Assembly (NCBI GenBank): GCA_964016885.1
Contig: OZ024743.1
Span: 70,680,001 to 70,744,000 of the forward strand
Source of the DNA: Eledone cirrhosa
Taxonomy: Eukaryota
Length of the DNA stretch: 64,000 bases
Reading direction: 5' to 3'
Position numbers and translations under genes: made by a program. The notes beneath the pieces are model-generated. The model made no database searches. It worked only from the letters and a program-made list of their open reading frames with translations, and was not told the origin of the DNA. Positions 55,947 through 56,610 of the stretch are shown here, piece by piece (position 1 is the stretch's first letter; each line of letters begins with the position of its first letter).

Positions 55947-55967
55947 ATATATATATATATATATATA

Positions 55968-56610
55968 TGATTTTTAATGCGATGAAATACCAATGATGGT
56001 TGGCAAATCACTGATGAGGGACTAATTTTATAATATGTAATCCATGTGCAACCATGCAATATTCTTCTCCCCTTGTTTTTCATATATATTTACCTAAACT
56101 GCGATTATCTGTTTCTCTCTTTCTCTCTTACTGCTCCCCCGTTCTCTCTGTTTCTCTTACCTTCTTTCGCCCTCTCTGTCAGTTACACTTTTTCTCTCGA
56201 CTGACCTCTTCCTCGCACTTCCACTCACTCACTCTCTGTTTCTCCCCTTCTCACTTCCTGCCGTTCGCTAGTAGTGGGGTTCCTTCTTTCTCACACCGCA
56301 TTCACGGCGTACGGTCTGCTTCTCTGACCGCTCATGAAATTCACCCAGATTATGCTGATCGGATAACTATCATGTGGCTTGCTGTTTTCCAACCTTCGGT
56401 TTGCTTTTCCTTCTGTTGTTTACTTGTCTCACTCGCTTTACGCGTTTCACTTGTCCCAATAGCTTATTTTAGTTATTGCTCGCACCAACCTGAGGTATCT
56501 GATTTTTAATGCGATGAAATACCAATGATGGTTGGCAAAATCACTGATGAGGGACTAATTTTATAATATGTAATCCATGTGCAACCATGCAGTATTCTTC
56601 TCCCCTTGTT

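Follow-up and report, generated by a model that had tools for sequence, protein, structure and literature searches.

Why should one copy of a non-coding repeat begin, to within a nucleotide, at the bond that a ribozyme in its own sequence is predicted to cut? The question is raised by an element in a 64,000-nt stretch of the Eledone cirrhosa genome (contig OZ024743.1, positions 70,680,001 to 70,744,000; hereafter the window, whose coordinates are used throughout). We consider it reasonably probable that this 5' end was left by reverse transcriptase running off an RNA that had cut itself at a predicted S-G-C hammerhead, and that run-off of this kind is likely a minor route, followed by a minority of copies.

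The element and its 5' junction

The element, assigned to family A, is a 648-nt partial tandem made of one 533-nt monomer plus 115 nt, and it follows a related element of family B:

54951-55945, plus strand: family-B element, which shares the ribozyme fold; a counter-example, since it starts ~220 nt 5' of its own predicted cut (sequence).
55946-55967, plus strand: (TA)11 tract at the 5' junction, doubling as the 3' tail of the family-B element (sequence).
55968-56082, plus strand: first family-A unit, 5'-truncated, running from the ribozyme 3' half at +1 (or +2) to the fixed end (97.5% identity to the 3' unit).
56083-56615, plus strand: full 533-nt monomer comprising a non-coding, pyrimidine-rich body and the ribozyme; it stops at the fixed 3' end of the family, 116 nt past the predicted cut (367 genome copies with an identical 3' junction).
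56616-56661, plus strand: 3' (TA)n tract, the putative priming side of the target (sequence; same end in nearly all of 60 loci).

The element is a non-coding, (TA)n-targeting Penelope-like repeat. In family A, 367 copies terminate at exactly the same position, 116 nt past the predicted cut, with (TA)n beyond it; the 5' ends of families A and C are variable, and some copies at the sampled loci carry inverted 5' pieces. Partial tandems, 5' truncation, inverted 5' pieces and a (TA)n target are the features given for Penelope-like insertions in PMC8557442, and all four are present here, as in a non-autonomous Penelope-like element. Exact matches to the ribozyme core number 9272 in the 3.0-Gb host genome. 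No linked open reading frame that could belong to an autonomous partner was found beside any fetched copy; GIY-YIG fragments do lie nearby, by position only. Retrozyme-like arrays of 9 and 4 family-B units are found at loci L374 and L373.

At the 5' junction, the (TA)11 tract (from 55946 to 55967) is followed by a T at 55968 and then by the 3' half of the ribozyme. In the intact unit, GGTATC (56494-56499) precedes TGATTTT (56500-56506), and the predicted cut falls between 56499 and 56500. We count positions from this predicted scissile bond, with +1 as the first base of the 3' product; on this scale, the family-A copy has its 5' boundary at +1 or +2. The AUC triplet is present in 72 of 78 units of the copy's own subfamily, and the ambiguity of the junction is therefore just 1 nt. 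The first-pass annotation had read the same start after (TA)n and the same letters across the cut, exactly, and had placed the boundary within one nucleotide of the predicted 3' product, allowing that the T might belong to the TA tract, which is what we find. A single-copy boundary at the cut exceeds chance weakly: one of four related elements in the window begins there, and in the other three the start precedes the predicted cut by ~62, 90 and 220 nt.

Several other features of the window may be recorded here. The flanks of the family-B and family-A pair (54881-54951 and 56644-56714) are inverted repeats of each other (97%), and from the sequence the two elements seem to occupy the TA centre of inverted repeats older than themselves. 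CUGAUGA motifs at 56810 and 29703 (plus strand) and at 31159, 26817, 22866 and 40939 (minus strand) resemble the usual type I Penelope hammerheads and appear not to belong to the S-G-C family. Tandem arrays with units of 472 and 484 nt and a CTGATGA motif per unit run on opposite strands at 553-3750 and 16376-22152; an inverted repeat of 154 nt, whose arms are 99% complementary and 7 nt apart, lies between TA tracts at 57934-58248; and 46701-46756 gives a weak tRNA-like match in Rfam, just at the threshold, that may be the head of a SINE.

The predicted ribozyme

The hammerhead blocks of the intact unit occur in the order cleavage site, GAAA, CUGAUGA, that is, in the non-circular order S-G-C, and they fall on the sequence as follows:

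56453-56483, plus strand: helper strand, comprising the helix IIa 5' strand (56453-56456), hairpin IIb (56457-56478) and the helix IIc 5' strand (56480-56483) (helices 1-3 covary; folding).
56485-56493, plus strand: non-canonical-stem strand of a predicted kink-turn (helix 4 covaries, in 5 of 6 pairs; kink-turn rule).
56494-56506, plus strand: block S, with the stem III 5' strand, the AUC triplet, the predicted cut at 56499/56500 and the stem I 5' strand (helices 5 and 6 covary; nomenclature as in PMC10085705).
56507-56523, plus strand: 4-nt linker, helix IIc 3' strand and block G (GAAA at 56516-56519, stem III 3' strand) (sequence, covariation).
56524-56535, plus strand: 3-nt bulge, tandem G-A pairs and 3' strand of the predicted kink-turn stem (kept in families A-H).
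56537-56555, plus strand: block C, with the stem I 3' strand, the CUGAUGA core (56544-56550) and the helix IIa 3' strand (sequence, covariation).

Across 12 aligned sequences picked by hand, pairing holds in 90.9% of cells, and changes on both sides are seen in 23 of 32 pairs, including 6 of 7 in stem I and 4 of 5 in stem III; none of 500 shuffles reaches these values, and slid registers give 30-46%. The molecule has the elements by which type SGC is recognized, namely CUGAnGA, GAAA and NUH in S-G-C order. What, then, of stem II? At most one direct pair forms between blocks G and C; by folding and covariation, both stem II strands pair instead with the upstream helper strand, which is predicted to replace the ordinary stem II. 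Because stem II differs in this way, the ribozyme is not a strict SGC member. An Rfam scan of the window returned no ribozyme and no hammerhead match. Family E is without the IIb hairpin, which suggests that this hairpin is dispensable.

In a kink-turn, two helices are separated by a 3-nt bulge and the tandem G-A/A-G pairs that come after it. This sequence pattern is present here and, at the level of sequence, is preserved across families A-H. Placed in stem III, a kink-turn would by this model bend the far end of the stem back to stem I, which is the geometry raised as a problem for the SGC order in PMC10085705, a paper from which the word 'kink' is absent.

5' ends around the predicted cut

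If the ribozyme cuts the template, do other copies end near the same bond? Copies were chosen by their 3' end only, namely the first 100 of 367 in family A (all on contigs C1-C2, the window copy not among them) and the first 90 of 1076 in family C. Ends at +1 to +14 number 14 of 100 in family A, against 3.7 expected from the background stop rate (p=3e-5), and 9 of 90 in family C, against 3.0 (p=0.004); in other words, copy starts just past the predicted cut are ~3-4x over-represented, and this interval is close to or identical with the most enriched 14-nt stretch of the whole unit (-2 to +12 in A, +1 to +14 in C). These Poisson p-values overstate significance, since ends are lumpy elsewhere as well, at +43, +63 and -104. 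When the 94 TA-flanked ends are compared with microhomology-matched rates, each resting on 5-30 events, 11 fall at +1 to +14 against 3.6 expected (p=0.0013). Further 3', at +15 to +55, counts are 13 against 12.4 in family A and 11 against 6.6 in family C; 5' of the cut, at -1 to -48, they are 4 against 11.4 (p=0.011) and 8 against 9.5, respectively. The family-A excess at +1 to +14 (~10 ends) is thus almost offset by this upstream deficit, a pattern not expected from simple run-off; family C has no comparable shortfall overall. In both families, ends also gather in a second cluster ~90-110 nt upstream of the cut (loci L121-L220 and L251-L340).

The cluster is not centred on the cut itself. In family A, its centre is at +8 to +12 and not at +1; ends at +1/+2 are just 3 of 100, none of them TA-flanked, and ~85-90% of passes run past the site and leave no scar. 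The first-pass annotation had looked for a peak at TGATTTT in place of a uniform spread: the distribution is indeed not uniform and is enriched at +1 to +14, but the TGATTTT peak is small and the main sites are +10 and +12.

Genome-wide, TA-flanked junctions were counted on the minus strand, so that each site enters once. The interval that holds the cut (+15 to -16) gives 277 of 2118 (13.1%), a count that by our estimate may include ~10-15 false junctions that are mutated intact units; the 31 nt 3' of about +12 give 317 of 4552 (7.0%), in a broader family set; and the interval 5' of the cut (-15 to -45) gives 42 of 1566 (2.7%). The edge of the cluster between -1 and +2 is sharp. At -1, where microhomology is 3 nt, the junction occurs once in the genome against 4.4 expected from 966 intact AUC units (p=0.06). 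At +2, where microhomology is 1 nt, the pattern has 62 matches; 20 of 30 checked are real (~40 by scaling), the other 10 being intact ribozymes carrying a point mutation, and for 11 of the 20 the closest units are of AUC type (about 6 of them firmly), so that scaling gives 12-23 in AUC-type copies against 1.4 expected. Junctions at +10 and +12, where the element shares TA/AT with the target, number 170 together. An apparent +3 junction was set aside, as 26 of its 30 matches are intact ribozymes with a point mutation.

A relaxed pattern, with 140 matches against 1 in the control, leads to the older S-G-C families D, E, G and H (L415-L483). For families D and E, 70 of the 140 matches were fetched and 58 used, 12 having been dropped as other families or A/C mutants; flank repeats were masked, and references were chosen by eye as intact. 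Ends at +1 to +18 number 23 of 58, and 3 of the remaining 35 lie at -1 to -18 (p=0.0016), positions being good to a few bases in these diverged copies; before the flank TA repeats were masked, the contrast was weaker (16 of 58 versus 4 of 42, p=0.04). The stem I sequences of D and E differ from those of A and C; the cluster is present nonetheless, and +1/+2 ends recur in families A, D and E. The four families are homologous and hence not fully independent.

Could all of this be ordinary random 5' truncation, with the window boundary arising by chance and the cluster marking an AT-rich stretch that anneals easily to (TA)n? We find this unlikely. More than 85% of ends do lie elsewhere, the strongest sites (+10, +12) are TA/AT microhomologies, +43 and +63 are comparable single-site hot spots, and three of the four window copies begin elsewhere. 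The enrichment persists after microhomology matching, however, the -1 site is nearly empty despite having more microhomology, the TA-rich stretch just upstream is depleted genome-wide (the 42 of 1566), and D and E cluster with other stem I sequences. Nor do we favour the idea, to our minds quite improbable, that the fold and not catalysis shapes the ends, whether the RNA breaks at the exposed UA linker (+8/+9), the polymerase lets go on a U run, transcription starts nearby, or the cDNA folds back and is trimmed into a loop. It would suit the concentration of clustered ends at +8 to +12 (four with non-TA flanks among them), the coincidence of the family-A depleted zone (-1 to -48) with the ribozyme 5' half, and the promoters described for Penelope pLTRs in PMC6765202. 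At 37 °C, though, predicted family-A cDNA ends at -1 to -11 and -25 to -41 are mostly unpaired (0.1-0.25), so fold-back does not make the edge; at 20 °C, -1 to -4 reach 0.5-0.65, but +2 does likewise. Stalling at helices would be expected to put ends 3' of +15, and the +1/+2 ends are found again in A, D and E.

For the window copy itself, a neighbouring family-B insertion or a later deletion might have removed the upstream part. The flanking tract is the family-B tail too, as such a secondary boundary would have it; yet no family-A sequence lies to the left of family B, and the same junction is seen at 19 other checked loci with different flanks, making this explanation highly improbable. Imprecise end-to-end template jumping is not supported: deletions beside the site are rare (20 and 4 matches, mostly short or between direct repeats; 1 of 190 sampled elements). 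Head-to-head joins at the site are rare as well, with two found in addition to L375, where a head-to-head pair at 1130-1210 has both arms starting at the predicted cut.

An upstream edge at the predicted bond, survival of the microhomology control and recurrence in four families together fit run-off at a cut 5' end followed by annealing. For the window copy, we multiply the roughly tenfold +2 excess by a fairly good chance that cleavage is its cause, and on that reckoning ribozyme cleavage is the probable, though by no means assured, source of its 5' end. The first-pass annotation had taken the boundary as reverse transcription to the end of a self-cleaved RNA. The clustering of ends 3' of the cut in four families, with its sharp edge, supports that reading; as a general rule it fails, because most ends lie elsewhere and ~85-90% of passes cross the site, and what is left is a likely minor route.

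A proposed insertion cycle and its known relatives

How might such an element move? A partner protein of Penelope type, likely a Naiad, would nick a (TA)n tract, and priming would use the UA run that the element itself carries 116 nt 3' of the ribozyme. Copying would then run toward the 5' end. Most passes cross the site cleanly, and most templates are therefore likely uncut or re-ligated at the ribozyme; these passes (~85-90%) would go on unscarred and break off at various points, which would produce partial tandems. In about 1 pass in 10, the template would be cut at the ribozyme and the cDNA would end at +1; this end would anneal to the target through the nearest T, TA or AT (+2, +10, +12), losing 0-11 nt. 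Seamless passes through the site would be compatible with a circular RNA intermediate.

More tentatively, and with rather less confidence than we place in the origin of the window copy's end, we propose that this kink-turned, non-circularly permuted hammerhead could be the missing ribozyme of Naiad-type Penelope elements, active in vivo, cutting and re-ligating the transposition RNA; the ligated form would give the partial tandems and the cut form the +1 to +14 cluster, a genomic record of activity. A replicated bias of insertion ends, with its edge at the predicted scissile bond, would speak indirectly for a ribozyme of this kind cutting transposition templates in vivo. Hammerhead function in endonuclease-positive Penelope elements is called unclear in PMC8557442. 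For a lizard Penelope element in vitro, cleavage is dispensable for insertion and no reads begin or end at the cut (PMC11167929), a result that, by analogy, would count against cleavage-driven ends. A search of titles and abstract openings, with subscription journals mostly outside its range, returned nothing that dealt with animal retroelements carrying S-G-C hammerheads or with Penelope copies whose 5' ends lie at the cut.

Among known systems, type-SGC ribozymes (HRIMA-1 and variants; Eckert et al. 2023, PMC10085705) share the S-G-C order, an intact core and a short linker from stem I to stem II; here, by contrast, a helper strand divides stem II, and stem III runs on through a predicted kink-turn. 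That paper has them from metatranscriptomes only, with none in genomes of known organisms, and our families would place the non-circularly permuted hammerhead in thousands of animal-genome copies. Naiads and other endonuclease-positive Penelope-like elements, according to Craig et al. 2021 (PMC8557442), likewise have partial tandems, 5' truncation, inverted 5' pieces and a (TA)n target, and are reported there without a canonical hammerhead. By eye, the 3' ends of Naiad_Obim and Naiad_Ovul given in that source show the S-G-C order, the kink-turn pattern and the very 8-nt hairpin loop of family A; the E. cirrhosa element differs in having no open reading frame, and the exact Naiad_Ovul motif has no match in the E. 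cirrhosa genome. Animal non-LTR retrozymes, in the accounts of Cervera and de la Pena 2020 (PMC7229834) and Li et al. 2026 (10.64898/2026.07.22.740005), are also non-coding and Penelope-derived, with repeats a few hundred bases long and a single hammerhead in each unit, but theirs are type I hammerheads, whereas the S-G-C order found here lacks the type I arrangement.

The closest analogy for the 5' end is R2, which, according to Eickbush et al. (PMC3774820), is cut at the junction by an HDV-like ribozyme and has variable, microhomology-primed 5' junctions. In both, the insertion would take its 5' end from an RNA that cleaves itself, and chance microhomology would make the join. Here, however, the ribozyme is a hammerhead and not HDV-like, it sits toward the 3' end of a unit that repeats, insertion is into (TA)n and not rDNA, and ~1 pass in 10 would stop at the cut. 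An R2-type element would have the 5' ends of complete copies at the cut, and in family A only the 3 of 100 at +1/+2, or the 14 of 100 at +1 to +14, come near it. We therefore do not assign this element an R2-type end; by analogy, it would work like a leaky version of the ribozyme-defined 5' end of R2.
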